Shown here one piece after another: positions 3,102 through 35,873 of a stretch of 64,000 bases of DNA; position 1 is the first letter of the stretch, and every line of letters starts with the position of its first letter. The notes under the pieces are model-generated. The model worked only from the letters and a program-made list of their open reading frames with translations. It ran no database searches and was not told the origin of the DNA. A program made the translations under genes and the position numbers. The DNA is from Eubacteriales bacterium (lineage in GTDB: Bacteria > Bacillota > Clostridia > Oscillospirales > CAG-382), in the NCBI GenBank assembly GCA_045533335.1, contig JAZSHQ010000021.1:2648-66647 (forward strand), in the 5' to 3' direction.

Positions 3102-6100
3102 TCAATCGTTAAGCGGGAGCATAAGCTTATGATTTCCGTCTGAAAGCGAAAGCGGGAAGGTTGCTTTGTTGCCGTCCAACTCCGCATATTCGGTTTCGCG
3201 CGCGGCCACAACGTGGATATGGGCGTTGCCGAGAGTGATATCGCACTCAAAGGCGATTACGGGCGAAGCGTCGAGCAGGGTTTGGTTTGCACCGAGCTTT
3301 AAGCCGAGGACCTGCTCGAGCATAATGCGGTAATACCACGAAGCCGCACCCGTATACCAGCTCCAACCGCCGCGTCCCGCAAAATCGCCGCCGTATATAT
3401 CCGCCGCAACGGCGTACGGCTCGGTTTTATAGCGCGAAGCCAGCTCCTTGTCGGCAGAGCGCGAAGCGGGGTTGGCGCAATCAAGAATAAGCAAGGCCTC
3501 CTCGGTCATTCCGCATTTCAAAAACCCAAGCGCGCCCCACAGCGCACCGTGGGTATATTGCCCGCCGTTTTCACGGATGCCCGCAACGTAGCCGCGTATA
3601 TAGCCAACGCGCGCATTGCCGTTGGTAAAGGGCGGCGAAAACAGCGAAAATATTCTGTTTTTGCGGTCATACAGCTTGGAAAATGCCGTATTTAGCGCGG
3701 TTTTTGTGCGTTCGGGGTCAAGCCCCGCGAGCGCGGCAAAGGCTTGCGACAGTATATCGATTTCGCATTCGCCGCAACCGTCGATACCCAATATTTTGCC
3801 GTCATCGCAGAATGCGCGCGCGTATCGGTCGCCGAAAAAGGCTTTTTCCTCGAGGTTTTTCTTAAAGCGTTCGATGCTTTCGCGGTAGTGTCGCGCCGTG
3901 TCCTTGTCCCCGCGGGAATCTATAAACGGCAAAAAGGCTGTTGCCGCGATAATAAACAGCATTGTCGAAAATACGCTTTCGCCGACCCCTTTCGCGCCGA
4001 CGAGTGAAAATGCATCGTTCCAATCGCAGGAGCCCATAAGAATAAGACCGTTTTTGCCGACACGCTCGGCGCAGGCGAGCGCGCGCAAACAATGGTGGTA
4101 AATGCTTTCTTTAATTTCGCTTCTTTCAGGGAGCTCGTAACGCTCGTTTTGCTTTCCGAGCGGGGGCGAGGTGAGATAATGCACCTCGATATCCAAAAGC
4201 GAGAAGTCGCCCGTTTTTTCGATATAATCGGCAATAACTATCGGCAGATAAAGCAGGTCGTCGGAGCATTTGCTTTTTATTCCGCTGTTAACGCGGTTTT
4301 GAACACGCGTGTGCCACCAATGCATAACGCTTCCGTCGAGATACTGATGAGCGCAACAACGGATAAGGTGTGTTCGCACGGTGCGGGGCGACGAATATAT
4401 AAGCGTAAGGCAATCCTGAAGCTGGTCGCGAAAGCCATAGGCACCGCCGCTTTGGTAAAACGAGCCGCGCGCATAAAAACGGCAGGCGGCAACCTGATAG
4501 GGAAGAAAGAAATTGAACATAAGGTTTTGCGCTTTGCTTTTTGTGGTCAGCTTTATTTTTGGAATAAAGGAATCGGCAAACGCCGCCGCTTCGGCAAGCG
4601 TCGAATCGAAAAAGGCGGTGTTAACGCGTGCGCAAATATTTTTTGCACCGCCTTCGGTCGTGCAGGCACCGATAAAAAAGAGCGTGCTGTTGCCGATATG
4701 AGAAAGACATTTTCTTTCTGCGTCGGCGGCACCGTTGCAAACACCCACAAAGCCGCGCCCCTCGGGGAAGGTAATACCGAAGCTGTTTTTGAACATAAGA
4801 CAGCTGTTTCCCGAAACGGCGGTTTGCATAATTTCGATACCGCTTTGCGGTGCAACGCCGTTGCCCATAACCAGCTCGATACAAAACCGCGTTTCGATAT
4901 CGCCTGCGGCGTATTCCACACGCATAAGCTTTATCGGGAATTTAGGATGGACGGTAACGGTAAGCGTGTAATCTGTTCCGTTTACGCTTCCGCAATAGAC
5001 CGCTTTGCCCGCTTCAAACCGCACGCTTTGCGAAATTGCGCAAAGGTCGTAGCGTTTGCCGTTGATAATCGCAAATATGCGTTCTCCGTTATCGAGCGAG
5101 CGCGCGTCGCCGTAAAACGAGCAAAGCCTGCGTTCGCGCGCGTTGTCGTAAAAGGTATAGCCGAGGCTCGATTGCGTAACGATGGTCGAAAACCTTTTTC
5201 CGGTAAGAACGAAGGAATAGGGCGCGTCGGGGAGCGTGCTTTTATCGACGGTAAAGCTTTTTTCGGTAAAAAAGCCGTAATTCGTTTTTAAAGCGCCGTT
5301 TGGCATAGTGAGCGCGCGGGTGACCGTCGGGCACGCGATTATCTCCTCGCCAAACGCGGTCAGCGGTTTATTGCTTTTGCGGTTTGATGAAAAATCGTAA
5401 TAAAAATCCGCTTTGCCTTTAAGCGCGGCAATAAATTCCTTGTCGGTTTCGCTTTCGCGCAGAATAAATATTCCGCCGTTCGCGCCTAAATACTGCGTTA
5501 GTCTGTTTGCGGCGCAACGCTCGCGCAGGGCCTTTTCGACAGGTCGGTTGTAGCCGTCGCTGTCCGAAACGATAAATATAAGCTCACAGCGTATGCAGGC
5601 GCGCACAAGTGCAACGTAGGCGTTCAATATCGCGTCGGTGCGGCTTATTGCCGTTTCGGAAATATGCACCAGCACTATCGGGTGGTCACCCGATATACCG
5701 CGCGCCCAAAGGTCGTTTATGCTGTATTTTGAAAGGGTATCGACCTTTTTGCCGCCCGAACGGTAAAGAATAGCGGGAAGCATTTTATCGAGCATTTCGC
5801 TTTGCAGTGAAAATCCGTATTCGCTTTTATCGGCGCGTGCAAGGCGAATGTTTTTTTCGCATTCGCTTTTGGTTTCGCCGCAGGCGATAAGAAAAACGGC
5901 ACGGCCGCCTTCTGCATTTTGGGCGCGAATAAGGCAAAGCGGGTCTATGCAAGCTCCCGTTTTGTTATCTGTTTCGAGCATTGCGTAATCGAAAACGTTT
6001 GTGACCGAGCTTGCCTTTAACGATTCGCGGCTCGTGATAAAGGAAATATCGGTATCTTTTTCGCGCGGGGCAACAGCGAGGGTAAAAATATGCCTGCCGT

Positions 6101-9100
6101 CAAGCCCGCTTCTTCGGTGGAAATAAAGTATACGCTTTTGCTTATCGTATTCGCTTTCGATAAAAAGGCGCGAAAAGGAGATATGCGAAAGATATTTTTT
6201 CGCACTTTCGAGCACCGGCTCAAAAGCAAGCGTTACCGAATATTTTTTGTTTGCCTCGGCGCGGGTGCTTATTATAAAGCAGGAGCAGTTTTTTGCCAAG
6301 GAATAGCGCACTCGCCCCGAAAACTCCTTGTTCGAAACGATATGCGACGCCCGCCCGTCGCCGCGTTCGAAGCCGTAGCTCCCTTCGCCGTATAGCGGAG
6401 CACATCCGAAATGGCGGTTTCCTCTTGTAAACACGACCGACGGCGAAAAGCGCATGGAAAATTGCGAAAATTCGGTATGGGCAAGCATTCTTTCGCCGCA
6501 GGTAAAACCGATATGACCGCTGCTCGTTATTACCGCGCTTAAGTCGCCGCGGGTGAGCAACGCCGCCAACGGGTCGAGCACCGACGAATTTTCGGTACGC
6601 ACACCGCGCGCGGCGGGGATATGGCTTTCGCGAGCCTCTCTGCCGAAAATTTTTTCGAAAATATGCGCGCCCGTGGGGATTTTTTCCTGCAAAAGCTCGC
6701 TGGCGGCAGACATACTTCTGTCGGACATAAATCGCTTTACAAAAACATTATCGTTTGTTGCGTTCATAACCGCAATAATGCTCATTCCGATATGGTGCGC
6801 CATATAGCTTTTAACGCATATCCCGCCGGAATCTCGATTTAAATCAAGCGCTTCGTAAAGACCGTATCTGCCGTACATCCCGCGGTTTTCAAAGGCTTTA
6901 AGGTTTTTTATTGCCGAATTGCCGAGCAGGCACAGCGAAAGATAGGTCGAATAGGGCGAAATCGTTTTTTCGTCCTGCGCTATGCGTCGCAAGGCAAGCG
7001 TCTGTATGCCGTTTGCCTTATATTGATAATGCATTTCGCTGTCGAACGAATAAAAGCCGCTTTCGCTAATGCCCCAAGGCTCGCATTCCGCGCGCTGAAG
7101 CATAAGCGAAAAGGCAATGCTTTCGTACATAAACGAATCGCGGTACAGCGGCAGAAACAGCTGGGGCATAAGGTATTCGAAAGCCGTGCCCGACCAGCTC
7201 ATCATACCGATATAGCCCTTGCTGTGGGTGAGCGTGCGGTTAAGCGAGCTCCAATGCTTTTTCGGCACCGCGTGCTTTGCGACCGCGTAATAGGCGGTCA
7301 TTCGCGCCTCGCTCATAAGCATATCGTAACAGCTTTTATCGCGTTCTCCGCTTTCGCCGTTTACGCCTATGCGGAACAGATTTTTGCGTTCGTCGTAAAA
7401 TACAGTGAGGTCGGTTTCGGTAATAATCGCTTCGATGCTTTTTATAAGCGGCTCGGTTTGCTCATCCTCGTCCGCATATTCGCGCAGACCCTCCTTAAGT
7501 GCGATGAGCATAACAAGAAAATTACCGCTGTCCACCGCCGAAACGTAGCCGTCGCCAATAACCGAAAGGCTTTTTATATCGTACCAATTATATAAATTGC
7601 CGTTGTATTTTTTAAGCTTTTCTATAACCCGAATACTTTCTGTAAGGCGCGTTCGAAGCGTTTGAGTGTCTATATCGCCGTTATCGCGTGCGGCAAGCAG
7701 GGAAATAAGGTAAAACCCGATATTCGTCGGGGAGGTGCGGTAGGCGGTATCGTACACCGGCGACATTTGAATATTGTCGGGCGGCAGGTGGTTGGTGGTG
7801 GAGTTGACGTTTTCAAGATAGAACTTTACCATATCCGAAGCCTGCGCCGAAAGCAGCTTTTTTTGTTTTTCGCTAAGATTGGGCTTTGCCTCTATTCCGC
7901 CGCCGAGCGGGCGCGAAAGCGAAAGTGCAACAAGCGGATAAACGAAATAAAGCAGCCCTGCAAGCCGAATAAACGGTGGGTATGCGAAGGCGAGCAAAGC
8001 AAGCCCGACCGCCGCCGAGGGCGCGCCGTCGAGCACGTATTTGCCAAGCGAGGAGGAAAGCTTTTCGGTTTGTGCGGCGGTGGTCCATTCGAGCGTCTTT
8101 TTACGGGTGTATAGCCTTATGCAGGCAAGCGCAAGCGCGTGCAAGGCAAGCAAGGCGCGACGTGCACTCGAGGATATTTCGAAGGACAGACGCATAAGCG
8201 TTTGTGCGAGCATCGAATATGCTTTCGAAAAGAAGCGAAGAGATGCAAACGGCGTACCGCTCAAGAAAAAGCATATAATCGCAAGCGCAGAAGGAAGCAG
8301 AGATTCGGAATATGCGAGCAGAAACAGCGCAAGTCCAAACCCCTTTGAAAACGCCGAAAACAGCACCGCGAGCAGAGAACACAGCGGCGATAAATGTCGA
8401 AGCGCGACAAGAAGCAACCGCCATTTTGAAAAAGCGTCCAATCTGTTTCCGAAAAGGAAATAAAGGTTTTGAAAATCGCCGCGCATCCAACGGTGCTGGC
8501 GTCGGAAAAACGAAACCGTGTTTGCGGGGGTGGAATCGGTAAATGTTATATCGGTTGCGGCAAGCGTTCGCATAATGCTTCCCTCGATAATATCGTGGCT
8601 CAAAACGAGGCCTTCGGGCAGCTTGCCGTTAACTGTTTTATCGAACAGCTCAACGTTTATAAGCCCTTTCCCGCAAAAGCTTCCGGTCCCGAAAAGCGTT
8701 TGCCTGCGCGAAAATTCGGCGTTTGAGTATGCGTCGGCTCCGCCCGTGCCCGAAATAAGACGCGAAAACGAGGTTTTGTACGCACTTTTAAGCGAGGTAT
8801 GCACCGACGGTTGAATGATTCCATAGCCGCGTACCGCTTTGCCGTTTTCGGTTTGCGGAGCATTTACGGGGTGAAGCGCGATAGATAAAAGCTCGTTCAC
8901 GCCCGAAAGCGAAAGGTTTGTATCGGAATCGAGGGTTAAAAGATATTTTATATCTCTTATAAAATCGCCTCCGTAATATTCGCTTTTTCCGCCGTGCACG
9001 ATATGGGTAACCAGCTCGCACACCGCCCCGCGCTTTCTTTCCCAACCGCCGTATCTGCCCTCGCTTTCATTCATCACGCGTTCGCGCAGAAAAAGGCAAA

Positions 9101-10148
9101 AATGGTTGCCGTGTAATCGGTTAAGCTCGTCAATGCACTTGCGCGCGTTCGAAATCAGCGAATTATCGTCGACGCGGTAGGGGCTGTCGCAATCGGGCAG
9201 GTCGGCAAGCAGGCAGAAATAAATATTATCGTCGGGATTCATATAGCGAAACCGCGCAAGCGATTCGAAAATTTCATCGTCCTTGCCGTTAAGGAGTGCC
9301 GCCACGGCAACGAGTGTTTTTGCGTTGCCGGGTATTTGCGCCAAATCAAGTCTCGGCGCACGGAACGCAGGCGCGAAGCGTGATATTATTTGGTCTGCCG
9401 CCGCGCTCGAAGCGATGGAGTAGGGAATGATCAAAAGCAAGGTTACCCACCCGACCGCATAAAAGGAAAAGGCGGTCAACAGCATTAAAATCGCCGCAAA
9501 AGCGGTTATCCACGCGAAGGTGTAGCTTTTTTGCGGAACGAAAAGATAGCTTCCGAGCGGAAGACTTTCGAGCCTTGCACGCTCGGTTAGTGCGCGCGCC
9601 GCCTCGGTTTCCGCCATACCGTTCCGCTTTGCGTAGTCGGCAAGCAATTTGCGGTACTGCTCTTTCGTTTCGCGGTCGAAAAGCGCATAGTCCTCCTCGA
9701 AGTGTGAAATTACCGATTCGGGCTCCCAAAGCTCGGGAAGAATATCGCCGTATTCGGGGTCGTCGAGCGATTGAAGCAGCTTTACCGCATTCGGTAGCAG
9801 ATATCCGCTTTTTTCGTCGCGCAGGGCTTCGCTTATGCAAACAATAGCGCAGACCGAAAGCAGGGTGGGCAGAGCGCAAAGCGTATAATAATCGAAGCTT
9901 TTTTCGCAGGACGCAAGAAAGGCTTTAAGCGTTTTCGGGGTGGCAAGGCAATCGCGCTCGGCGCAATAGCGTTTAAGCAAATAATAAAGCTCGCTTTGCG
10001 AAAGCGCATTACTGTCCGAAAGCGCCGTGCGGTAAAATTTGTCGATAATATAGAAATTATCGGTAAGCCACGCCGATACCTCGCGCGCGGAAAGGCTTTT
10101 TTGTATTACAGAATAGGAACGTTTAAGTCGTTTGCGAAGATCTTGCAT
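3102..10148 (-). CDS. Giant membrane glycosyltransferase / glycan phosphorylase fusion, cyclic beta-1,2-glucan synthase-like (GT84 + GH94-type)
   Basis: 2348-aa ORF. GT-type LTLDSDTNL and RRQHRWMRGD motifs are flanked by hydrophobic spans. The C-terminal region has GH94-style YGFRDQLQD and SCDWNDAF motifs. The architecture resembles Cgs/NdvB/ChvB. Confidence 0.75.
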   Translation of the reverse strand: MQDLRKRLKRSYSVIQKSLSAREVSAWLTDNFYIIDKFYRTALSDSNALSQSELYYLLKRYCAERDCLATPKTLKAFLASCEKSFDYYTLCALPTLLSVCAIVCISEALRDEKSGYLLPNAVKLLQSLDDPEYGDILPELWEPESVISHFEEDYALFDRETKEQYRKLLADYAKRNGMAETEAARALTERARLESLPLGSYLFVPQKSYTFAWITAFAAILMLLTAFSFYAVGWVTLLLIIPYSIASSAAADQIISRFAPAFRAPRLDLAQIPGNAKTLVAVAALLNGKDDEIFESLARFRYMNPDDNIYFCLLADLPDCDSPYRVDDNSLISNARKCIDELNRLHGNHFCLFLRERVMNESEGRYGGWERKRGAVCELVTHIVHGGKSEYYGGDFIRDIKYLLTLDSDTNLSLSGVNELLSIALHPVNAPQTENGKAVRGYGIIQPSVHTSLKSAYKTSFSRLISGTGGADAYSNAEFSRRQTLFGTGSFCGKGLINVELFDKTVNGKLPEGLVLSHDIIEGSIMRTLAATDITFTDSTPANTVSFFRRQHRWMRGDFQNLYFLFGNRLDAFSKWRLLLVALRHLSPLCSLLAVLFSAFSKGFGLALFLLAYSESLLPSALAIICFFLSGTPFASLRFFSKAYSMLAQTLMRLSFEISSSARRALLALHALALACIRLYTRKKTLEWTTAAQTEKLSSSLGKYVLDGAPSAAVGLALLAFAYPPFIRLAGLLYFVYPLVALSLSRPLGGGIEAKPNLSEKQKKLLSAQASDMVKFYLENVNSTTNHLPPDNIQMSPVYDTAYRTSPTNIGFYLISLLAARDNGDIDTQTLRTRLTESIRVIEKLKKYNGNLYNWYDIKSLSVIGDGYVSAVDSGNFLVMLIALKEGLREYADEDEQTEPLIKSIEAIITETDLTVFYDERKNLFRIGVNGESGERDKSCYDMLMSEARMTAYYAVAKHAVPKKHWSSLNRTLTHSKGYIGMMSWSGTAFEYLMPQLFLPLYRDSFMYESIAFSLMLQRAECEPWGISESGFYSFDSEMHYQYKANGIQTLALRRIAQDEKTISPYSTYLSLCLLGNSAIKNLKAFENRGMYGRYGLYEALDLNRDSGGICVKSYMAHHIGMSIIAVMNATNDNVFVKRFMSDRSMSAASELLQEKIPTGAHIFEKIFGREARESHIPAARGVRTENSSVLDPLAALLTRGDLSAVITSSGHIGFTCGERMLAHTEFSQFSMRFSPSVVFTRGNRHFGCAPLYGEGSYGFERGDGRASHIVSNKEFSGRVRYSLAKNCSCFIISTRAEANKKYSVTLAFEPVLESAKKYLSHISFSRLFIESEYDKQKRILYFHRRSGLDGRHIFTLAVAPREKDTDISFITSRESLKASSVTNVFDYAMLETDNKTGACIDPLCLIRAQNAEGGRAVFLIACGETKSECEKNIRLARADKSEYGFSLQSEMLDKMLPAILYRSGGKKVDTLSKYSINDLWARGISGDHPIVLVHISETAISRTDAILNAYVALVRACIRCELIFIVSDSDGYNRPVEKALRERCAANRLTQYLGANGGIFILRESETDKEFIAALKGKADFYYDFSSNRKSNKPLTAFGEEIIACPTVTRALTMPNGALKTNYGFFTEKSFTVDKSTLPDAPYSFVLTGKRFSTIVTQSSLGYTFYDNARERRLCSFYGDARSLDNGERIFAIINGKRYDLCAISQSVRFEAGKAVYCGSVNGTDYTLTVTVHPKFPIKLMRVEYAAGDIETRFCIELVMGNGVAPQSGIEIMQTAVSGNSCLMFKNSFGITFPEGRGFVGVCNGAADAERKCLSHIGNSTLFFIGACTTEGGAKNICARVNTAFFDSTLAEAAAFADSFIPKIKLTTKSKAQNLMFNFFLPYQVAACRFYARGSFYQSGGAYGFRDQLQDCLTLIYSSPRTVRTHLIRCCAHQYLDGSVMHWWHTRVQNRVNSGIKSKCSDDLLYLPIVIADYIEKTGDFSLLDIEVHYLTSPPLGKQNERYELPERSEIKESIYHHCLRALACAERVGKNGLILMGSCDWNDAFSLVGAKGVGESVFSTMLFIIAATAFLPFIDSRGDKDTARHYRESIERFKKNLEEKAFFGDRYARAFCDDGKILGIDGCGECEIDILSQAFAALAGLDPERTKTALNTAFSKLYDRKNRIFSLFSPPFTNGNARVGYIRGYVAGIRENGGQYTHGALWGALGFLKCGMTEEALLILDCANPASRSADKELASRYKTEPYAVAADIYGGDFAGRGGWSWYTGAASWYYRIMLEQVLGLKLGANQTLLDASPVIAFECDITLGNAHIHVVAARETEYAELDGNKATFPLSLSDGNHKLMLPLND

Positions 10149-10993: not shown

Positions 10994-11305
10994 TTATTCA
11001 GCTTTTTTAAAAACGGTTGCTCCGCCGAAGCCCAAGGTGTCGTCATCGGCATTGTAGGTAAGAGTATCATAGGTGAAGGTCGAGCCCTCGTTCATCGTTA
11101 TTTTAATAACGTCCTCCTCTACCGTAAAGGTGCCGTAGGATTCAAAACCGCCCGTGGAGATTATAACGTCATCACCTTCGAAGGTGATTGTGATCAGTCC
11201 CGTGGCAACGTCCTCGTAAGTGCCGTCGGGTATGTTGCTTCTGCCGCAGGCGCAAAGCGAAACACACAAAACTACTGCCATAAGTGCAAACAGGATCCTT
11301 TTCAT
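10994..11305 (-). CDS. Small lipoprotein, hypothetical
   Basis: Signal peptide with a lipobox-like LCVSLCAC-G. No other motif. Confidence 0.55.
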   Translation of the reverse strand: MKRILFALMAVVLCVSLCACGRSNIPDGTYEDVATGLITITFEGDDVIISTGGFESYGTFTVEEDVIKITMNEGSTFTYDTLTYNADDDTLGFGGATVFKKAE

Positions 11306-11449
11306 AACTTACCTCCGATTATTTTATTGTCGAGATATGTAAATTTTTAACATCTCTTGTCTAAAGTATATATGAAAACTTTAACCTTGTCAAGTGTTTT
11401 TGCAACAAAAGACAAAAAGAGCGTGCGTTTGTGGTTGCACGCTCTTTGA

Positions 11450-12745
11450 TTATTGGAATCTTACAAGGAAAAAGGTGTCGCGGCCGTTGCTGTATGCCCA
11501 TATCGTATATTTGAATCTAACGCCGTTTGTATTAACGTTATTCAGCGCGTCACCGAGCGCCGACCAATCGAGATTTGCGCCAAGAACAACGGTTTGGTAT
11601 TCGTCGTTTCCGCCGTTTAAATACTCGTTTACTATCGATTCGGCAAGCATTTCTACGTTTTCAAATGCCTTTTCGTAGTAAAATTCGGTATTCTCGGCAT
11701 CGTTAAAGTAAAAATAGTTTTCGTCGGTTTTGTCGGCGATAGGGTAGTATTCCATTTCCTCGCCCCATTCGTATTCAAGGCACATATCGCGCCCTGCGTT
11801 GAAAAGGCGGTAAGAGGGTTGAACACCGACGGTATATACCACCGAATCGTCGAAGGTGACGTCGACGATATACCATTCGCCGTCGAGAAACACCGTGTTT
11901 GCAATATGCCAGCCGTCGGAATTGTAAACGTTCATACGCCCGACTTTAAATCCCGCCATCGTGGCGAGCAGATAAAATGCGTCGGTATAGCCTTGGCAGT
12001 TGGCTTTTTTATCGAGTAAAGCACCCACGGCGGTTAAATGCCGTGGCGGATTTTTCGCGTCGGGCACTTCGGTCGAGCCGTAAAAATAGGTAACGCGCTC
12101 GGCAATGGCATCGTGCAGTAAAAGTTCCAACTCAAATTCGCTGTCGGCTTCGGCTCTTGCGGCTTCAACGATCTTTTCGGCTTCCGCGAGCGTTCGTTTT
12201 TCGTCGTAGCTTAAGTCCGAGCTGTCGCCCGAAAAATAAGCGTCTGCGATTCTGTCGCCGGGGTATTCGTAAATAATTATTCTGTATTCGTTGCCGTTAT
12301 TAAGCCACCAAGTAATACAGCAAGCCGAGGTTATACGCGCGATCGTTTCGCCGTTTACCTCCTCGGGCGCGCCCGTGTATCTGAATTCAAGCTCGAACTC
12401 GCCGCTCGCCTTTTTGCCGTTCAAATAATCGCGAAGCTCTGTAAGGCTTGCAATATCGGGCATTTCGTTAGATTCCGATTCGAAACTTATATCCCCAAGG
12501 CTTTCCTCGGGAAGAGATATATCAAAGCTTTCCTCAACGCTTTCTGAAAAAATGCTTTGTTCGGAATTTTCGGTGCCGAATGCATCGGATAATTCCTGCT
12601 CACTGCTTTCGCCAAAGCCTTCGAACTCTTGCTCCAAAAAGCTTTCTATATCGTCGGGCAGGCCGAACGGGAAAAAGCAACCGCAAAAGGTGATCGAAAG
12701 GGCAAGCAGTAGCGCTAAAAAGGTTATTTTTTTCAATGCAAACAT
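11450..12745 (-). CDS. Secreted/lipoprotein transglutaminase-like (Cys-His-Asp core) protein
   Basis: N-terminal signal with Cys (SITFCGC), an acidic linker, then NCQGYTDAFYLLATMAGF...GWHIANTVFLDGEWYIVDVTFDD, which is a transglutaminase-core C/H/D pattern. Confidence 0.65.
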   Translation of the reverse strand: MFALKKITFLALLLALSITFCGCFFPFGLPDDIESFLEQEFEGFGESSEQELSDAFGTENSEQSIFSESVEESFDISLPEESLGDISFESESNEMPDIASLTELRDYLNGKKASGEFELEFRYTGAPEEVNGETIARITSACCITWWLNNGNEYRIIIYEYPGDRIADAYFSGDSSDLSYDEKRTLAEAEKIVEAARAEADSEFELELLLHDAIAERVTYFYGSTEVPDAKNPPRHLTAVGALLDKKANCQGYTDAFYLLATMAGFKVGRMNVYNSDGWHIANTVFLDGEWYIVDVTFDDSVVYTVGVQPSYRLFNAGRDMCLEYEWGEEMEYYPIADKTDENYFYFNDAENTEFYYEKAFENVEMLAESIVNEYLNGGNDEYQTVVLGANLDWSALGDALNNVNTNGVRFKYTIWAYSNGRDTFFLVRFQ

Positions 12746-27663: not shown

Positions 27664-28299
27664 TTACTGTTTTTTGCTGTGCTTGATAAAAGGGAAAATT
27701 TTTATTTTAAGCTTTTGCGGCTTTCCTTCGCAGATAAACAGCTTTGCCGTTACAATGCAGGCGATAAGGAGATAGCCGATATATATCGCCGCGTCGTGCT
27801 GGAATATCGGCATTATCAACGCCGCGAGAATAAAGCTTATCAGCGTTCGTGCGGAATTCGGGCTTATTTTTGCCATTATCGAAAACACGATAAAAATAAT
27901 ACCCAAAACCCTAACGCTTGTCAAGTCGGGGGTGAGCCCCAAAAGACTGCCGAAGGATACCGAAATGCCTTTTCCGCCCTTAAATTTGTGAAAAATAGGG
28001 AAACAATGTCCCAAAGCGGGTGCGGCAAGCACCGTAACGATGCCCCAAGGGGAGGTTGCGAAAAAGTGGCGGTATATAAATATCGGCAAAAAGCCTTTAA
28101 GAATATCGCAAGTAGCCGTGGCACAACCGCAGGCGATTCCGCCGTGCAGGAATGCGTTGTAGGCACCGGGGTTTTTATCGTCGCTTTGGCTTATTATGTC
28201 TTTTTTTGCAAAAAGCGAGCCGAAGTATTTCGCGAAAAGCAGGCTGCCGCAAAAATATCCGATTGTCGTAAAAATCAATGCCGAAATCAATCGACGCAC
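27664..28299 (-). CDS. plsY: Glycerol-3-phosphate acyltransferase PlsY
   Basis: GAYNAFLHGG and LGHCFPIFHKFKGGKGISVSFG motifs. The track ORF start (28410) overlaps the upstream gene, so a GTG at 28299 or TTG at 28290 (RBS GAAGGTG) is more plausible. Confidence 0.8.
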   Translation of the reverse strand: MRRLISALIFTTIGYFCGSLLFAKYFGSLFAKKDIISQSDDKNPGAYNAFLHGGIACGCATATCDILKGFLPIFIYRHFFATSPWGIVTVLAAPALGHCFPIFHKFKGGKGISVSFGSLLGLTPDLTSVRVLGIIFIVFSIMAKISPNSARTLISFILAALIMPIFQHDAAIYIGYLLIACIVTAKLFICEGKPQKLKIKIFPFIKHSKKQ

Positions 28300-28346
28300 C
28301 TTCTTTTCAAAACTTACGGGGCCGCCTTGCGGCAACCCCTTTAAGC

Positions 28347-29150
28347 TTAAATATTGTTTCTCCAGCTTTCGTCGCGTTCTATGCGCGATTGACGCGAGCG
28401 CATTTCGCATTCTATGCGGTGCTTGCTTCCGCGCGCAAAAAGGTTGACCTTGGTGTCTTCGCCAAAGGATTGCTGAAGAATATTTTCGACAGTTCCGTTC
28501 GAAAGGAAGCTGCAGGAAAAGATATCGATGTTTGCTATACGCTCCGCAATCGAATAGTGGAAGGCGATATGGCTTTGCGCCACCACTAACAGACCCGAAA
28601 TGTGTTCGGGGTTTTGGAGCTTGTCGTAGATTACGTAAGGGCGCGAGATCGCCTGCATATTGATGCGCGGTGCAACGTTATCGAGCCATTTGAAAATGCT
28701 TTCGAAATTCGCATCGATATTTTCTGCCGTTATCATATAGTGCGGGCCGAAATCGTTGCCGGTGTCGATATTACCGCTTATTCCTTCGAACACGCGGCGG
28801 TCGACGACGTTCGTGCTAATCGTGCTTGCGTAGATCTGGTTGCGGATAAGTGTCGTTACCTCGTCTTCGCTGAAGAATTGGTCGGTAAGTATATCGACAA
28901 AATAGCAGGAACGGTAGGGGAAGGTATGTATGGTAATGTGCGAGCCGTTGGCACAGATACAAAACGCGCTCACACCCACGTCCTCGGATTCCTTGCAGTA
29001 ATAGTAGGGAACGAGGAACGGAGGCATAACCGGTTTCATATTAAGGCTGTTCGACAGCTGTACCAACAGATCGTTTACGACCATAATGCTGTTGGATTGC
29101 TCTACAAAGCAACCGTAGGCATCCAACATATAGTGTCTGTTTGCAAGCAT
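28347..29150 (-). CDS. Tandem-duplicated S-adenosylmethionine-decarboxylase-like (pyruvoyl-enzyme fold) protein; last gene of the TIR operon
   Basis: Two modules follow the bacterial AdoMetDC pattern: NRHYMLDAYGC...GVSAFCICANGSHITIHTFPYRSCYFVDILTD and PHYMITAENID...ISGLLVVAQSHIAFHYSIAERIANIDIFSCS. Compare SpeD: GRHVISELWGC...[27 protein letters not shown]. Confidence 0.6.
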   Translation of the reverse strand: MLANRHYMLDAYGCFVEQSNSIMVVNDLLVQLSNSLNMKPVMPPFLVPYYYCKESEDVGVSAFCICANGSHITIHTFPYRSCYFVDILTDQFFSEDEVTTLIRNQIYASTISTNVVDRRVFEGISGNIDTGNDFGPHYMITAENIDANFESIFKWLDNVAPRINMQAISRPYVIYDKLQNPEHISGLLVVAQSHIAFHYSIAERIANIDIFSCSFLSNGTVENILQQSFGEDTKVNLFARGSKHRIECEMRSRQSRIERDESWRNNI

Positions 29151-29159
29151 TTTGCTCTC

Positions 29160-31415
29160 CTAATCTACGAATATCTCGTTGAAATCCTTGAAGTTGATAA
29201 GCACGGGATCTATCCACCATGTGTTGCTTGTGCGAAGCACGTTCGGCAGACAGTAGAAAACGTTGCTCAGGTTATATGAAAATTCCGAAAGCACCTTTAT
29301 TTCTTTCGCTTCGGGGTTGGCGTCGCCGTCTAAATCGTAGTTTAGCGAGAAGGTTACCGTTTTATAGCCGTCGTAGTTTTCGTTGCCGCTGTTGCAGGTC
29401 GCGGTGTAGGGATATATCGCACGCGAGGGGTTGTCGTTGCTCAATTCAAATGTACCGTTTCTTAAATATTCAAGAATATGGAACGCGAAGCTTATCCATT
29501 CGTTGACGTTGCTTTCGTTAAGCGCTTTTAAGCTCTTGGCATATCCGAGAGTGTATTTCTTGAATTCTGCGGTGTTTAAAAGCTCGTATTTTCCGATGGC
29601 AGAATAGAGCGCACGGCGTGCGCTTTCCGATGAATTCGAGCCCGAACCGCACATTTCGCAAAGCTCGATAAAACGGTGCATAAGCGAAATCATATCTTCG
29701 AAATTGCTTGCGTTGAATTCTTTAAGCGTATCCGCTTCTTCCTTTGCGGCAGAAAGGAAACGCTCGTGCAGAGCCTTTTGGTCCTTTGCAATATCTGCTT
29801 CCGAAAGGCAGGAAAGACTCGATTTTACGTCAAATTCCGACTTTCTTTCACCGTACGCAAGAAGCCCCTTGTAGAAGCATATTATATGGCGGAAGGTTTC
29901 GCTTAAGATTATGCAGACATATTTTGCACGTTGCTCGGGTGTCATAGAGGTCTTCATTTTTTCGAGCAGCGCCATATTGTCGTAGATATTACCCGCACAA
30001 ATCGATTTTTCAACGGTTTCCTCTTCGTGCACCGCCGAAAGCGACGAAATTATCAGCATTGCCATCGCTCTTGCGCGCAAACGCTTGTTGTTTGCGTTCG
30101 GCACCTTGCCGAAACCGCTCGCTTCGCCGAATATCAGCTTTTCCTTTATTATTCGGTCGATTTCCTGCATAAGCTCGCGCTTGTTGCGTCCGCGGATATA
30201 CATTTTGGGGTTATCTATGCGCTTGCAAAGGTTGCGCGCGATGTCGACAAAGTTCTTTTCGTTCAAGAACAAAACCTCAAGCACGCTCGAGGGGCTGTAC
30301 TCGATAAGAAGCATAACGATTATGCTGTCCCAGTCAAGCTTTTGCGATTCTATATTTTCGCTTGGATTCGATTCGCCGAAGATGTCGTCGCCTTCGCGTT
30401 TGTAAAAAGCATCGTAAAGCGCCGCCTTCGAGCCGATGTTTATGTCGATGGTATCGGATATCGCCAAAGCGAGATTTTTAATGTATTTGTAGTTAATCGT
30501 GTGGACCTGATGTATCAGGTTGTTTTTTTTTGATTCCGGTTCATTTTCCTCGGACCACGGAACGAGTGCGATTTCCGAATACACTTCTTCGGGAACGCGG
30601 TTTATGGTGTTTTCGTCTTCGGAATCGGATTCGAATACCGTGAAGCTGACGGTTTGCGAGTTCTTTTCGCAGATATACTTCAGTTCGAGCTTATGACCGT
30701 TTTCGCTTTCGCTTTTTTCTATACTGAAGAGCGAGAACATATCGAGATAACGGTCCTCGTTGAAATAAAGAAGATACATTGCGGGGATATAGCGGTAATC
30801 CTCGGATTCGCGCGGGTTTTTGGAAACGAACACGAAATTGCCGTCTTCGTCCTGGACCAGATCGTAATCCTGCAGAAATGCTATGTTTTCGAGCAGATCG
30901 AGGAACATCGCCGAAAGTTCGAGCGTATCCATATTAAAGCGCGCGGGCGCGACACGCCATTCTGCGATGAGCTTGAAATACTTGATCAGCGTGAAATCAC
31001 GGGAGCCGAAGGAGGAGAGCCTTTTGAAAATATCGTAAAGTTCGCTGTCCTCGTCCTGAAGCATTTCGAACTGAATATCGGTAAGCACGAACTGCACTAG
31101 CTCGGGAGTTACCGGATATTGCGAATAGGCCTTTTTTAAGCTGTTTATAATGCGAAGCGAGCTTTGCGACGAAACGTTTTCGCTTATCGATTCGCCGCTG
31201 TTTATATCGCATTTAAGACTTCCGTATGCAAAAATGAACGAAAGCGTGAGAATGTTATTTATAAAAACTACGTAAGAGGAGGATTTGCAGTATTTTTTAA
31301 CGTTCGTTCCGCCCAATATAAAGTTTTTCATATTGTCGCAGACCTTGTCGTTGAAAAATTCCAAAATACTGTTTCGGGTGGCTTCCTCCAAAGATTTTTT
31401 GGAACGCTCGTCCAT
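29160..31415 (-). CDS. 751-aa orphan protein (no recognisable motif); fourth gene of the TIR operon
   Basis: Long uninterrupted ORF. AGGAGG RBS 7 nt upstream. 18-nt gap from the ATPase gene and 9-nt gap to the next gene. No P-loop, nuclease or HEPN motif found by eye. Confidence 0.75.
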   Translation of the reverse strand: MDERSKKSLEEATRNSILEFFNDKVCDNMKNFILGGTNVKKYCKSSSYVVFINNILTLSFIFAYGSLKCDINSGESISENVSSQSSLRIINSLKKAYSQYPVTPELVQFVLTDIQFEMLQDEDSELYDIFKRLSSFGSRDFTLIKYFKLIAEWRVAPARFNMDTLELSAMFLDLLENIAFLQDYDLVQDEDGNFVFVSKNPRESEDYRYIPAMYLLYFNEDRYLDMFSLFSIEKSESENGHKLELKYICEKNSQTVSFTVFESDSEDENTINRVPEEVYSEIALVPWSEENEPESKKNNLIHQVHTINYKYIKNLALAISDTIDINIGSKAALYDAFYKREGDDIFGESNPSENIESQKLDWDSIIVMLLIEYSPSSVLEVLFLNEKNFVDIARNLCKRIDNPKMYIRGRNKRELMQEIDRIIKEKLIFGEASGFGKVPNANNKRLRARAMAMLIISSLSAVHEEETVEKSICAGNIYDNMALLEKMKTSMTPEQRAKYVCIILSETFRHIICFYKGLLAYGERKSEFDVKSSLSCLSEADIAKDQKALHERFLSAAKEEADTLKEFNASNFEDMISLMHRFIELCEMCGSGSNSSESARRALYSAIGKYELLNTAEFKKYTLGYAKSLKALNESNVNEWISFAFHILEYLRNGTFELSNDNPSRAIYPYTATCNSGNENYDGYKTVTFSLNYDLDGDANPEAKEIKVLSEFSYNLSNVFYCLPNVLRTSNTWWIDPVLINFKDFNEIFVD

Positions 31416-32392: not shown

Positions 32393-34597
32393 TTATTCAA
32401 ACAGCGAGCTTTCGTGATCGCCGGAGTTCTTGATGCGTGCGATATAGTTGCCGACAAGAAGCCGTACGTCTTTTCTGATATAGCCTTGGAAGCGTTCGAG
32501 CTCTTTTTTGTTTTCCTCGAAGGATGCCTTTGAGGATTTCGATGCGGAATACACCCTATCGCTGAGAAGCGACATAACGAATGCACCCATCGCGGTTTCG
32601 AAAGCCTTGCTCGATTCGTTAAGCTCTTCTGCGCCCATAACCGATGCTGTGATGTTTTCGGCAACCGATGCGATAAAGCCGCTGATAAGCTCGGGGAACA
32701 TATACTTAATTTCGCGCTTCAGAATGTCTACAACAGCATCCTCGACAGGTCTTTCAACGTGATCAAGCTGGTTTTGCAACTCGATATTTTTGTTTTGAAG
32801 CTTTTCGATTTCTTTTTCCTTGTCATCGATAACCTGATTAAGCTTGCCGATAGCGCCGTCGGGAAGTTCGTCCTGACGTTTTTGCTCGGCAAGGATCGCT
32901 TCACGCTGGGATTTGTTTTTGTTGTAGTTTTCTATATATTCGCTTTCGTATCTTTCGTAATAGAAATAGAATTCTCCCAAAGCGGAAATATAGTAATAGT
33001 TACTGCAACTGAAGAAGCCGTCCTTTTCCCATATCCACTTGACCGAAGTGCCTTTTTCGTAACGGTTTTCAAGGATATAGCCAAGGTATTTACGCATATT
33101 GTGCTGGGGATATTTAATAAGATATTCGCTTATCGCGTTGTTGGTACGTATAAGCAGCGGCATAAGCGAGAACACACGCATACGGCGCTTTCTGAGCTCT
33201 TTTATAATAACCTTGTGGCGGGTGAATCTTTCGTTGAAACCGATAAGGAACTGATCAACGATATAGTCCTTGCCGTCGTTTTTAAGCTTTTCATAGGTAC
33301 GGAACGCCTTTTGTACCGCGAGCTGGCAGGAGTCGAGCATATCGTTATACTCGCGCAGTGCCTTTTCAAGCTGTTCCTCGTCGGTTGCAAATGCGCGCTG
33401 AACATCGAGATCTTCGTCCACACCGGCATCGAGCATAATGTTTATCATATACACCGTGTTGAACAGTGCGTCGGACGTGGTCGCCATCGAGATATCATCT
33501 TCGGTGAGGGTGGTATGAAGGTCGTTGTAATAAAATGCATCTGCGAGCTTATCCTTGGAAAGACGCCATATTTCGTGCGCAACCGCTTTGCAGTTTTCTT
33601 CCAAAAGACCGTATTCGCCGCTTATTTTGTCGATTCCGCCGTTTATTTCGATAAAGCGGAGCCTTAATTCGTTGTAGGGGTCGTATTTAGATGTTTGGCG
33701 AGATTCGCTATCGACAACAGCTTCGCTTTCGCCGCTTGTCGCCGCGTTTATTTCCTCGTATTCCTCGAGATGCTTTTGATATTCTTCTTGGAGTGTCTTA
33801 AAGGTATCGGTGGTGGTGTTATAGCGCTCGCAATTACGTTCTTCCTTGAGATAGTTCAAATATTCTTCGAAGGTTTTGAACATTTCCACAAGACATTCGC
33901 AAACCGTAAAGGTGTAGTAAAGAGAGGGCTCTTCACAGCCCTTGGTGAAGTTCCAGCCGATTTCAAGCTTTTTAGATTCACCGCGCTCGCTTTCACCTTC
34001 GATAAAGCTGTCGTTAATATAACGCATACCGTAGGATATTGCGGCAACCAGCCTTTCCTGGCGTCTGCATTTTTCACGTATGCTTGCGTGGTATTTAAGT
34101 ATCTGCAAAAAGCAGGATACAACCCAGGTAATAGCTTCTATGTTGGAGATTTCAACGTTGAAATGAGCGGTTTCGTAAGGCGAAGCGTCGAAAACGTATT
34201 CGTCGGGATTTTCCGTTTCGATTCTTGCAAGGACGTCGTCCATAACGATGTCCATTATTTCACGAATGGTGAGGTTTTTCTTGTCCTTTAATATTTCGTC
34301 ATCGTCGAAATCGAGTTTGAAGGACGAAGCTAAAAGCATAAGTGCCTGAAGCGAGTGGCACTGCGAAAGCAGACCTACCGCGCGGGTATCGTCCATAAAA
34401 AAGCCGATATCGCCTTTTTTGGGATCGCTGTTAAAGCGCGAATAAAGCTCTTCAAATATTTTTTTGCCGATCTTGATCTTTGATCTGTACTGATAGAAAA
34501 CCTGCGAATCGTCGTTTTTCGAGGCGAAGTCGACGATATCTGCAAGGTTACCGTATCGTGCGCGTCTGTCGATTGTAGAAGTAGTGTGATCTGCCAT
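32393..34597 (-). CDS. 734-aa orphan protein, predicted mostly helical with C-terminal coiled coil; second gene of the TIR operon
   Basis: Long ORF 12 nt downstream of the TIR gene stop. Heptad-like KEKEIEKLQNKNIELQNQLD and an acidic linker EEINAATSGESEAVVDSESRQ. No catalytic motif recognised. Confidence 0.75.
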   Translation of the reverse strand: MADHTTSTIDRRARYGNLADIVDFASKNDDSQVFYQYRSKIKIGKKIFEELYSRFNSDPKKGDIGFFMDDTRAVGLLSQCHSLQALMLLASSFKLDFDDDEILKDKKNLTIREIMDIVMDDVLARIETENPDEYVFDASPYETAHFNVEISNIEAITWVVSCFLQILKYHASIREKCRRQERLVAAISYGMRYINDSFIEGESERGESKKLEIGWNFTKGCEEPSLYYTFTVCECLVEMFKTFEEYLNYLKEERNCERYNTTTDTFKTLQEEYQKHLEEYEEINAATSGESEAVVDSESRQTSKYDPYNELRLRFIEINGGIDKISGEYGLLEENCKAVAHEIWRLSKDKLADAFYYNDLHTTLTEDDISMATTSDALFNTVYMINIMLDAGVDEDLDVQRAFATDEEQLEKALREYNDMLDSCQLAVQKAFRTYEKLKNDGKDYIVDQFLIGFNERFTRHKVIIKELRKRRMRVFSLMPLLIRTNNAISEYLIKYPQHNMRKYLGYILENRYEKGTSVKWIWEKDGFFSCSNYYYISALGEFYFYYERYESEYIENYNKNKSQREAILAEQKRQDELPDGAIGKLNQVIDDKEKEIEKLQNKNIELQNQLDHVERPVEDAVVDILKREIKYMFPELISGFIASVAENITASVMGAEELNESSKAFETAMGAFVMSLLSDRVYSASKSSKASFEENKKELERFQGYIRKDVRLLVGNYIARIKNSGDHESSLFE

Positions 34598-35844: not shown

Positions 35845-35873
35845 ATTATACAATATATGCGCTTTTTAGTCAA
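35845..35873 (-). promoter_or_regulatory. Near-consensus sigma-A promoter of the TIR operon
   Basis: Minus strand: TTGACT (35873-35868), 17-nt spacer, TATAAT (35850-35845). About 80 nt upstream of the ATG at 35764, and directly after the galT terminator. Confidence 0.65.

Follow-up and report, generated by a model that had tools for sequence, protein, structure and literature searches.

A tandem S-adenosylmethionine decarboxylase-fold protein with one intact site, encoded in a TIR-domain gene cassette of Clostridia

Introduction

S-adenosylmethionine decarboxylases (AdoMetDCs; SpeD) of class 1b, represented by the structures 1TLU and 1VR7 of Thermotoga maritima and 2III of Aquifex aeolicus, are homodimers in which a Glu stands before the Ser of the processing site. 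The subject of this study is a 267-residue protein in which two modules of the same fold are joined in one chain with one potential pyruvoyl site, and in which, unlike the class-1b enzymes, a Gln precedes the Ser, no equivalent of T. maritima Glu72 is found and there is no polyamine context. Its gene is the last of five co-directional genes, headed by a gene for a TIR-domain protein, in a 64,000-nucleotide stretch of DNA (hereafter the window) from a Eubacteriales bacterium (GTDB CAG-382; assembly GCA_045533335.1, contig JAZSHQ010000021.1, positions 2,648-66,647).

The eukaryotic class-2 AdoMetDCs (1JL0, 1I7B) are likewise single-chain alpha-beta-beta-alpha pseudo-dimers, in which one half holds the only pyruvoyl site and the other does not process. 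Their active site is built from both halves: in the human enzyme, one half of the sandwich provides the pyruvoyl Ser and the Cys and the other provides the processing His and the ribose-binding Glu, whereas each prokaryotic protomer bears the union of the two residue sets (PMC1282579). In the eukaryotic proteins the pyruvoyl Ser and the Cys lie in the N-terminal half, but in the window protein they lie in the C-terminal half; there is no significant sequence similarity between the two, and the biological context is different.

Fusions of two SpeD homologues (SpeD1-SpeD2 or SpeD-SpeDC) have been described in Desulfotignum phosphitoxidans, Ca. Omnitrophica and Victivallis vadensis. Their N-terminal module is a bona fide AdoMetDC and their C-terminal module is either an ornithine decarboxylase or degraded, their genes lie directly upstream of speE, and the V. 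vadensis fusion, in which one module is degraded, undergoes a single cleavage; these fusions were presented as explaining the eukaryotic class 2 AdoMetDC (Li et al. 2023, PMC10407285). Like those proteins of about 270-320 amino acids (aa), the window protein unites two SpeD homologues in one open reading frame (ORF), but it is the N-terminal module that appears to be dead and the C-terminal module that is intact, and the gene closes a TIR operon that contains no speE. Because of this reversed polarity and different context, which are the new points relative to the published fusions, the family to which the window protein belongs is probably an independent fusion.

To our knowledge, the known bacterial TIR systems end in depletion of nicotinamide adenine dinucleotide (NAD) or in signal-activated nucleases, pores, SIR2 enzymes or proteases. 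With TIR defence systems such as Thoeris (ThsB), TIR-STING and TIR-SAVED, the present cassette shares a TIR_2 domain whose putative catalytic Glu is invariant, a variable sensor-like domain attached to the TIR domain, an operon organization and a patchy, mobile distribution. Unlike Thoeris-like systems, it has no ThsA-like, SLOG, Macro-TM, SAVED or known signal-receptor effector, and it is not matched by a Thoeris model of PADLOC. A literature search, outside which most subscription journals fall so that a prior description is possible, found no paper linking the AdoMetDC fold to TIR or defence systems, and none containing the combination of TIR, ParA-like, two orphan and pyruvoyl-type decarboxylase genes; a tandem decarboxylase in a TIR operon is apparently undescribed.

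Internal duplication of the AdoMetDC fold

The complete protein matches the Pfam family AdoMet_dc (PF02675) with an E-value of 2.7e-22 (79.6 bits) in two stretches. The gathering score of 25 bits is also exceeded by the halves taken separately: residues 1-123 reach 48.6 bits (E=1.1e-12) and residues 124-267 reach 35.2 bits (E=1.7e-08). When profiles of the two modules, both derived from 118 homologues, were aligned to each other with hhalign (probability 94%, E=1.3e-07), Ser70, His71, His75, Asp86 and Asp90 of module 1 were paired with Ser193, His194, His198, Asp209 and Cys213 of module 2, respectively.

The AlphaFold2 model of the protein, calculated from an alignment of 94 sequences, has a mean predicted local distance difference test score (pLDDT) of 83.7 and a predicted template modelling score (pTM) of 0.84. 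Its top Foldseek matches in the PDB are the class-1b AdoMetDCs 2iii (A. aeolicus) and 1tlu, 1tmi and 1vr7 (T. maritima), each of which covers one half (TMt 0.77-0.80, E about 1e-06), so that the fold of each module is that of the class-1b enzymes. The two-lobed human AdoMetDC (1jl0_B) could be aligned to the model over 302 columns with a TMq of 0.49, and the model also resembles human spermine synthase (3c6k) in its AdoMetDC-like domain. Because both halves pass the threshold of PF02675, align with each other and correspond in the model to AdoMetDC structures, the internal duplication is real and far beyond chance, and the protein is a member of the AdoMetDC superfamily by hidden Markov model, by fold and, in module 2, by motif.

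The C-terminal tail (residues 243-267, positions 28347-28421) is modelled with low confidence, with a helix predicted at residues 253-265. An invariant Arg240-Gly241-x-Lys243 and an invariant Trp263 lie near or in this tail, which may serve as a partner-binding element.

The site of module 2

Residues were mapped by pairwise alignment to the AdoMetDCs of T. maritima and A. aeolicus, and the sites were then compared in 118 close homologues, in about 40 distant full-length relatives obtained by an exhaustive profile search, and in 87 loci, 78 of which are from GTDB species representatives and nine from metagenome contigs, duplicates included (individual loci are cited below by L numbers). In these alignments, Ser55, Glu62, Ser63, His68, Glu72, Asp79 and Cys83 of T. 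maritima AdoMetDC fall on Ser185, Gln192, Ser193, His198, Ala202, Asp209 and Cys213 of module 2 and on Ser61, Gly69, Ser70, His75, Tyr79, Asp86 and Asp90 of module 1. The motif x-S-H...H...D...C of module 2 thus aligns residue by residue with Glu62, Ser63, His64, His68, Asp79 and Cys83 of the T. maritima enzyme.

Ser193, His194, His198, Asp209, Ser212 and Cys213 are unchanged in all 87 loci. The residue preceding Ser193 separates the family into two groups: it is Gln in the Clostridia members (70/70) and the canonical Glu in the remaining members (17/17), which belong to Myxococcota, Desulfobacterota, Aminicenantes and other lineages. Judged by its residues, module 2 seems to carry the complete set required for serinolysis and catalysis, with a clade-specific change of Glu to Gln at position -1. 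The model places Ser193 in a turn between the strands of residues 183-190 and 193-200, as does the cleavage site of AdoMetDCs, and the calculated masses of the products of cleavage before Ser193 are 21.8 kDa (residues 1-192) and 8.8 kDa (residues 193-267).

The degenerate site of module 1 and a possible composite active site

The residue of module 1 corresponding to the pyruvoyl Ser is not maintained. Position 70 is Ser in 32, Gly in 21 and Ala in two of the 55 five-gene cassettes described below, and it is Gly in all 13 seven-gene cassettes and in all 17 remaining members; position 90, which is Asp in the window protein, is never Cys among the cassette clades. Because the Ser is not conserved and the Cys is lacking, module 1 most likely constitutes a dead site from which a processing site is absent. 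Position 79 (Tyr in the window protein) is Tyr, Phe, Arg or Gln across the family.

Other residues of module 1 are strictly retained: Asp10, Tyr12, Ser61, His71, His75, Cys82 and Asp86 are invariant within the cassette clades, and Tyr12 varies only to Phe, a change seen in 12 of the 17 loci outside the cassette clades. By analogy with known AdoMetDCs, the live site would be composed of Ser193 and Cys213 from module 2 together with Ser61 and His75 from module 1, all of which are invariant. The residues expected around the dead site, namely Asp10, His71 and Asp86 of module 1 with Ser185 and His198 of module 2, are invariant as well, which leaves room for a ligand-binding role.

A preliminary description of this DNA, made from the sequence alone, had regarded the protein as a fused pseudo-dimer of two AdoMetDC-like halves with one plausible and one degenerate site, and had noted that both halves follow the class-1 motif. 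The matches of each half to PF02675 and to the other half, the alignments to the T. maritima and A. aeolicus enzymes, in which the motif correspondence is borne out, and the similarity of the AlphaFold model to class-1b and human AdoMetDC all agree with that view. Of the "non-canonical processing sites" that it ascribed to both halves, the Gln-Ser of module 2 stands, whereas the NGSH of module 1 does not, since its Ser is not conserved.

Conservation of the cassette and its variants

A scan of GTDB with one genome per species yielded about 163 relatives among 185,579 species representatives, with a patchy distribution. Decarboxylase homologues with 53-70% identity are found in an identical five-gene arrangement on unrelated contigs, and the five window proteins were compared with the 87 loci by tblastn. 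The four cassette genes other than the TIR gene occur together in all of the 68 Clostridia loci that have enough flanking DNA, and the TIR gene was located in 62 of these (in 50 by tblastn with the window TIR protein and in 12 as a TIR-LRR_5 gene); in the other six, its position lies beyond the contig end or was not examined. In the reverse direction, of the homologues of the 751-aa protein encoded by the fourth gene, the most divergent is again found beside TIR, gene-2, ParA-like and AdoMet_dc homologues.

The five-gene order is present in 55 Clostridia loci, with decarboxylase identities down to 42%. The window TIR protein is matched in 49 of these; of the remaining six, five are on contigs that stop within the cassette and one (L058) gave no tblastn match. 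A seven-gene type, with decarboxylase identities of 36-43%, is represented by 13 Clostridia loci (L058-L070, for example L066:2657-13943), in which the order is TIR-LRR_5, a protein of about 884 aa, ParA-like, a protein of about 841 aa, tandem decarboxylase, radical-SAM enzyme and phosphoenolpyruvate (PEP)-synthase-like enzyme; the 884-aa, ParA-like and 841-aa proteins are homologous to the products of genes 2-4. The TIR-LRR_5 gene was confirmed in 12 of the 13, the contig of L064 ending upstream. The radical-SAM enzyme is of a variant, MSMEG_0568-like type with 65-77% identity between loci, and the seventh gene encodes an enzyme related to PEP synthase, rifampicin phosphotransferase (Rph) and PigC.

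Among the cassette proteins, the decarboxylase ranks first in conservation in each of the 51 loci compared (51/51), with a mean identity of 61.5%, followed by the ParA-like protein (49.6%), the 734-aa protein (40.2%) and the 751-aa protein (38.5%), and the TIR protein is the most divergent (31.9%). The genes bordering the cassette are heterogeneous: those just upstream fall into 36 families among 45 loci and those just downstream into 40 families among 50 loci. The cassette is mobile and occupies a different location in almost every genome. The association with a TIR operon stated in the preliminary description is supported by the co-occurrence in the Clostridia loci, the TIR and ParA-like neighbours that it named are supported by domain matches (given below), and its remark that speE/speB-type genes are missing nearby agrees with the neighbours examined.

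Some loci deviate from these patterns. In a yak-gut metagenome-assembled genome (MAG) of Eubacteriales (L024), the decarboxylase is 99% identical to that of the window. A single reduced case (L030:7162-13292) consists of genes for a TIR-LRR_5 protein of 558 aa, a membrane protein of the CitMHS family and the decarboxylase, with metH directly after them and without the ParA-like and orphan genes; its decarboxylase has 59% identity, a Gln-Ser site and Glu at position 79. L026 is a contig of 1.9 kb and gives no context.

Organization of the operon and its other components

The five genes lie on the minus strand between a promoter-like site and a terminator-like hairpin (Table 1). The promoter-like site is a consensus match only, and such sites are no more numerous in the region than expected from shuffling. 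The hairpin probably marks the end of the operon. The ribosome-binding site of the decarboxylase gene overlaps the stop codon of gene 4, an arrangement from which the decarboxylase gene is predicted to be translationally coupled to the 751-aa gene. The overlap of 64 nucleotides between the plsY ORF (27664-28410, minus strand) and the decarboxylase gene was rejected as an artefact of ORF calling, because the strong terminator hairpin sits inside the extension and because a GTG with AAGAAGG ahead of it, at about 28299, is available as a start and yields a normal PlsY N-terminus.

Table 1. Positions of the decarboxylase gene, its modules and key codons, and the other elements of the operon in the window
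Feature	Position	Strand	Basis
Gene 5, tandem AdoMetDC/SpeD-fold protein, 267 aa	28347-29150	-	ORF list and PF02675
Module 1, residues 1-125, probably degenerate AdoMetDC half	28776-29150	-	PF02675, alignments, locus comparison
Module 2, residues 133-250, AdoMetDC half with apparently intact catalytic set	28401-28754	-	PF02675, alignments, locus comparison
Codons CAA-AGC, Gln192-Ser193, predicted self-cleavage site and pyruvoyl precursor	28572-28577	-	Aligned to T. maritima Glu62-Ser63
Codon TGC, Cys213, equivalent of proton-donor Cys83 of T. maritima AdoMetDC	28512-28514	-	Alignment
Promoter-like site TTGACT-17-TATAAT (11/12), about 80 nucleotides upstream of the TIR gene	35845-35873	-	Consensus match only
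Gene 1, TIR-domain protein, 384 aa	34610-35764	-	PF13676, E=1.8e-07
Gene 2, 734-aa orphan protein, coiled-coil segment around residues 545-630	32393-34597	-	Family and profile searches
Gene 3, ParA/MinD-like P-loop protein, 310 aa	31434-32366	-	NCBIfam, PADLOC, motif
Gene 4, 751-aa orphan protein, helical with two beta-rich regions	29160-31415	-	AlphaFold2 model
Ribosome-binding site AGGAGA, 5 nucleotides before the decarboxylase ATG, overlapping the TAG stop of gene 4	29156-29161	-	Sequence reading
Terminator-like hairpin, 9-bp stem (7 G-C pairs) with T-rich tail	28318-28339	-	8 nucleotides past the decarboxylase stop

The TIR protein has an N-terminal TIR_2 domain in which Glu90, the putative catalytic Glu, is invariant in 47 orthologues. 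Its C-terminal domain of about 190 aa is DUF6273-like in two orthologues at E-values of 0.006-0.017, below the threshold, and is exchanged for LRR_5 in the seven-gene clade and in L030; against the SAVED_TIR model of PADLOC the protein gives a weak match (E=1.4e-04).

For the 734-aa protein, which is conserved in 66 loci, no family was found in Pfam, NCBIfam or PADLOC, no Pfam domain was found in the 46 orthologues scanned, and a profile search of the PDB returned coiled-coil noise and no relative. The 751-aa protein has 114 homologues, and no Pfam domain was found in the 60 orthologues scanned; its AlphaFold2 model (pLDDT 81.1, pTM 0.77) has no match among PDB folds by Foldseek (best E 0.04), and neither single-sequence nor profile searches found a relative in the PDB. 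The possibility that the two proteins are paralogues of each other was rejected on comparison, and they appear to represent two large orphan families confined to the cassette.

The ParA-like protein matches the NCBIfam model NF047398 ("KGGVGR-motif variant AAA ATPase") with E=3e-17 and 63.6 bits, below the cutoff of 90, and PADLOC candidate PDC-M28B with E=4.4e-09, the B component being the only part of PDC-M28 that is matched, and weakly. Its Walker A sequence, S-Y-K-G-G-x-G-R (K-G-G-A-G-R-S in the window), in which Ser8, Tyr9, Lys10, Gly11, Gly12 and Arg15 are invariant in 40 orthologues, departs from the deviant Walker A pattern KGGxGK[ST] in having Arg15 at the place of the catalytic Lys, while the "signature" Lys10 is kept. 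This substitution suggests that ATP hydrolysis is altered or lost. The similarity to ParF/ParA structures is confined to the P-loop, and the homologue search found in-cassette relatives only. Inactive MinD/ParA-like domains have been noted in NTP-dependent conflict systems (Kaur et al. 2020, PMC7159879); what the cassette shares with those systems, with NF047398 and with PDC-M28B is a ParA/MinD-like protein that has a variant Walker A motif and is encoded in a putative conflict operon, but the partner genes differ.

Genomic neighbourhood

No polyamine gene (speE/speB) was found among the neighbours examined in the window or in the loci, and there is no second AdoMet_dc ORF in the window. In three loci (L007-L009), the cassette is preceded by a gene for a 1430-aa STAND-type NTPase with weak to faint matches to DUF4062, AAA_16 and NACHT (1-2651) and followed by one for a 338-aa Macro-domain protein resembling O-acetyl-ADP-ribose deacetylases (11021-12037). 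Such neighbours are typical company in defence islands and are relevant to ADP-ribose chemistry. Giant neighbours stand directly downstream of the cassette in two other loci: in L001 (11128-20819), genes for proteins of 777 aa and 875 aa and then a 1165-aa Tubulin_2 protein, and, in L088 (11105-13984), a gene for a 959-aa protein with a weak MACPF match. Elsewhere in the window, a 2348-aa ORF (3102-10148, minus strand) with GH94, glucoamylase-like and supersandwich regions resembles cyclic beta-1,2-glucan synthases/phosphorylases and is unrelated to the cassette.

Among IMG/VR viral contigs, no relatives were found. The phage database contains single-domain SpeD genes only, with about 32% identity, and the matches in the viral fold library were limited to SpeD-like proteins of a single domain and, in one case, a Bacillus phage proenzyme of 357 aa. 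On these results a phage origin was rejected.

The distant branch with the Glu-Ser site (L071-L087; Myxococcota, Desulfobacterota, Aminicenantes and other MAGs) has 32-35% identity to the window protein and Gly at the module-1 site. Its weakly recurrent neighbours are LolA-like proteins, TonB-dependent or outer-membrane barrels and a protein of about 510-570 aa, in a clustering that is confounded by antisense ORFs in high-GC genomes; genes for FadL outer-membrane, lipoprotein, TPR and 5'-nucleotidase proteins are also present. No speE was found among the neighbours of this branch that were checked.

Discussion

The tandem decarboxylase is probably a self-processing single-site enzyme that provides the chemical output of a TIR conflict or defence cassette. 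In the model favoured here, module 2 would cleave itself between Gln192 and Ser193, and Ser193 would thereby be converted to the pyruvoyl cofactor. Cys213 would then act as the proton donor, and module 1 would lend Ser61 and His75 to the single live site, in the manner suggested by the T. maritima dimer and the human enzyme. The TIR-X protein (TIR with a variable C-terminal domain), perhaps together with the orphan proteins, would perform sensing or signalling, and the decarboxylase, under the control of the TIR protein and its partners, would either consume S-adenosylmethionine (SAM) or make or mature a small molecule. A small-molecule pathway is favoured because the radical-SAM and phosphotransferase genes directly follow the decarboxylase gene in the seven-gene form. 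A role in conflict or defence fits the fast-evolving TIR-X protein, its swappable domains, the patchy and mobile spread of the cassette, the occasional conflict-island neighbours and the presence of a ParA-like protein.

Several results weigh against this interpretation, some concerning the chemistry and others concerning the biological role. With 58.5 bits, the protein falls short of the 75.65-bit cutoff of TIGR03330, the SpeD equivalog of NCBIfam, and the predicted cleavage would fall after Gln instead of the canonical Glu. The Glu that binds the ribose (T. maritima Glu72 and human Glu247, in the "HTWPE" motif) is found in neither module, and position 202 of module 2, which is its equivalent, is variable (Lys, Ala or Glu across loci); many of the nearest single-domain relatives likewise have no such Glu. 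In human AdoMetDC, Glu247 binds the ribose hydroxyls of SAM (PMC1282579). Given the absence of this residue, the substrate may be SAM held in a different way or another metabolite bearing an alpha-amino acid. The equivalog score and the variability of the Glu position make SAM a candidate substrate and not a safe assignment, and, within the model favoured here, its chance of being the true substrate is put at somewhat less than even.

As to the biological role, the distant Glu-Ser branch has no cassette or TIR partners by tblastn and neighbour inspection, so the tandem fold is not intrinsically tied to TIR. The window flanks of the cassette are housekeeping genes and form no defence island. 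No PADLOC system matches the cassette, three of its five proteins having no match below E=0.01 and the decarboxylase and the 734-aa protein being among the proteins without a match; NCBIfam holds nothing specific for a known defence system in it, and no classical effector (nuclease, pore or protease) is recognizable among its proteins.

The simplest alternative is an ordinary polyamine enzyme, that is, a SpeD-SpeD fusion that makes decarboxylated SAM (dcSAM), with or without putrescine, for spermidine synthesis, its position beside a TIR operon being incidental. Membership in PF02675 and the intact Ser/His/Cys set of one module are compatible with this, and AdoMetDC activity is known from tandem SpeD fusions in which one module is degraded (PMC10407285). 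Those fusions, however, are active in the N-terminal module and adjoin speE, whereas the window protein would be active in the C-terminal module and has no speE or speB among the neighbours examined in the window and the loci. Its gene closes the operon, with predicted translational coupling to the 751-aa gene, and the cassette partners accompany it in every Clostridia locus with enough flank despite unrelated surroundings. This explanation is highly improbable, and a polyamine role was rejected on the genomic context together with the equivalog score and the missing ribose-binding Glu; the decarboxylase is very probably not a polyamine enzyme. It is also conceivable that the protein is a non-catalytic subunit, either a ligand binder whose AdoMetDC fold senses SAM or an adenosine-containing signal, or a scaffold that associates structurally with the 751-aa protein. 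Spermine synthase sets a precedent, since its N-terminal domain is AdoMetDC-like but has no catalytic function; the model resembles that domain, module 1 is strongly conserved although it is apparently non-catalytic, and the probable translational coupling would suit a structural partnership. Against this, if there were neither catalysis nor processing, it would be hard to understand why Ser193, Cys213 and His198 stay constant in all 87 loci, between clades with no more than 32-35% identity, and descendants that only bind a ligand normally lose these very residues, as module 1 did. Because Ser, His and Cys are strictly conserved between clades that share about one third of their residues, a working pyruvoyl enzyme is preferred to a scaffold, which is considered unlikely.

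The remaining alternative concerns the cassette as a whole, which might be a non-immune biosynthetic or cell-biological module: the decarboxylase, with the radical-SAM and PEP-synthase-like enzymes, would make a metabolite derived from SAM, which the ParA-like and orphan proteins would organize or export, and the TIR protein would be an NAD-consuming enzyme or a regulator. The two further small-molecule enzymes of the seven-gene variant speak for this possibility, as do the missing effector and PADLOC system, the housekeeping flanks in the window and the absence of the cassette from viral contigs. It is nevertheless difficult to reconcile with the TIR-X protein, which is the fastest-evolving component and has swappable C-terminal domains (LRR_5 or DUF6273-like), with the sparse occurrence in about 163 of 185,579 species representatives, with a location that differs in almost every genome, and with the STAND NTPase, Macro, MACPF or tubulin-type conflict genes that adjoin some loci. 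A fast-evolving TIR-X protein with swappable C-terminal domains, patchiness, shifting location and conflict neighbours are hallmarks of conflict systems and not of metabolic clusters. A non-immune role is thus regarded as rather improbable, roughly one chance in several.

Within the interpretation of the decarboxylase as the output of a TIR conflict cassette, a bolder and quite speculative version, which is itself unlikely to be correct, can be formulated in which the two lobes share the work of an immune effector. The dead-site pocket (Asp10, Tyr12, His71 and Asp86 with Ser185 and His198) would have been kept to bind an adenosine-containing signal that the TIR protein makes from NAD, and binding of this signal would switch on the pyruvoyl site. 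The activated site would decarboxylate SAM, leading to SAM depletion and build-up of dcSAM, or would act instead on an amino-acid-nucleotide conjugate; in the seven-gene form, the radical-SAM enzyme and the phosphotransferase would elaborate the product into an antiviral small molecule. If true, this would be the first immune output produced by pyruvoyl-dependent decarboxylation.

The cassette adds to the known repertoire two sizeable orphan families, one of them without a fold match, and a ParA-like protein with Arg in place of Lys in its P-loop. The decarboxylase is also of evolutionary interest, because it mirrors, in the opposite polarity, the SpeD-SpeDC fusions reported in 2023 as well as the way in which the eukaryotic AdoMetDC arose. 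If the decarboxylase is the output of the TIR operon, it would represent a new chemistry, decarboxylation of SAM or of an amino acid, for immune or conflict systems, possibly one in which the decarboxylation feeds a pathway of a radical-SAM enzyme and a phosphotransferase.

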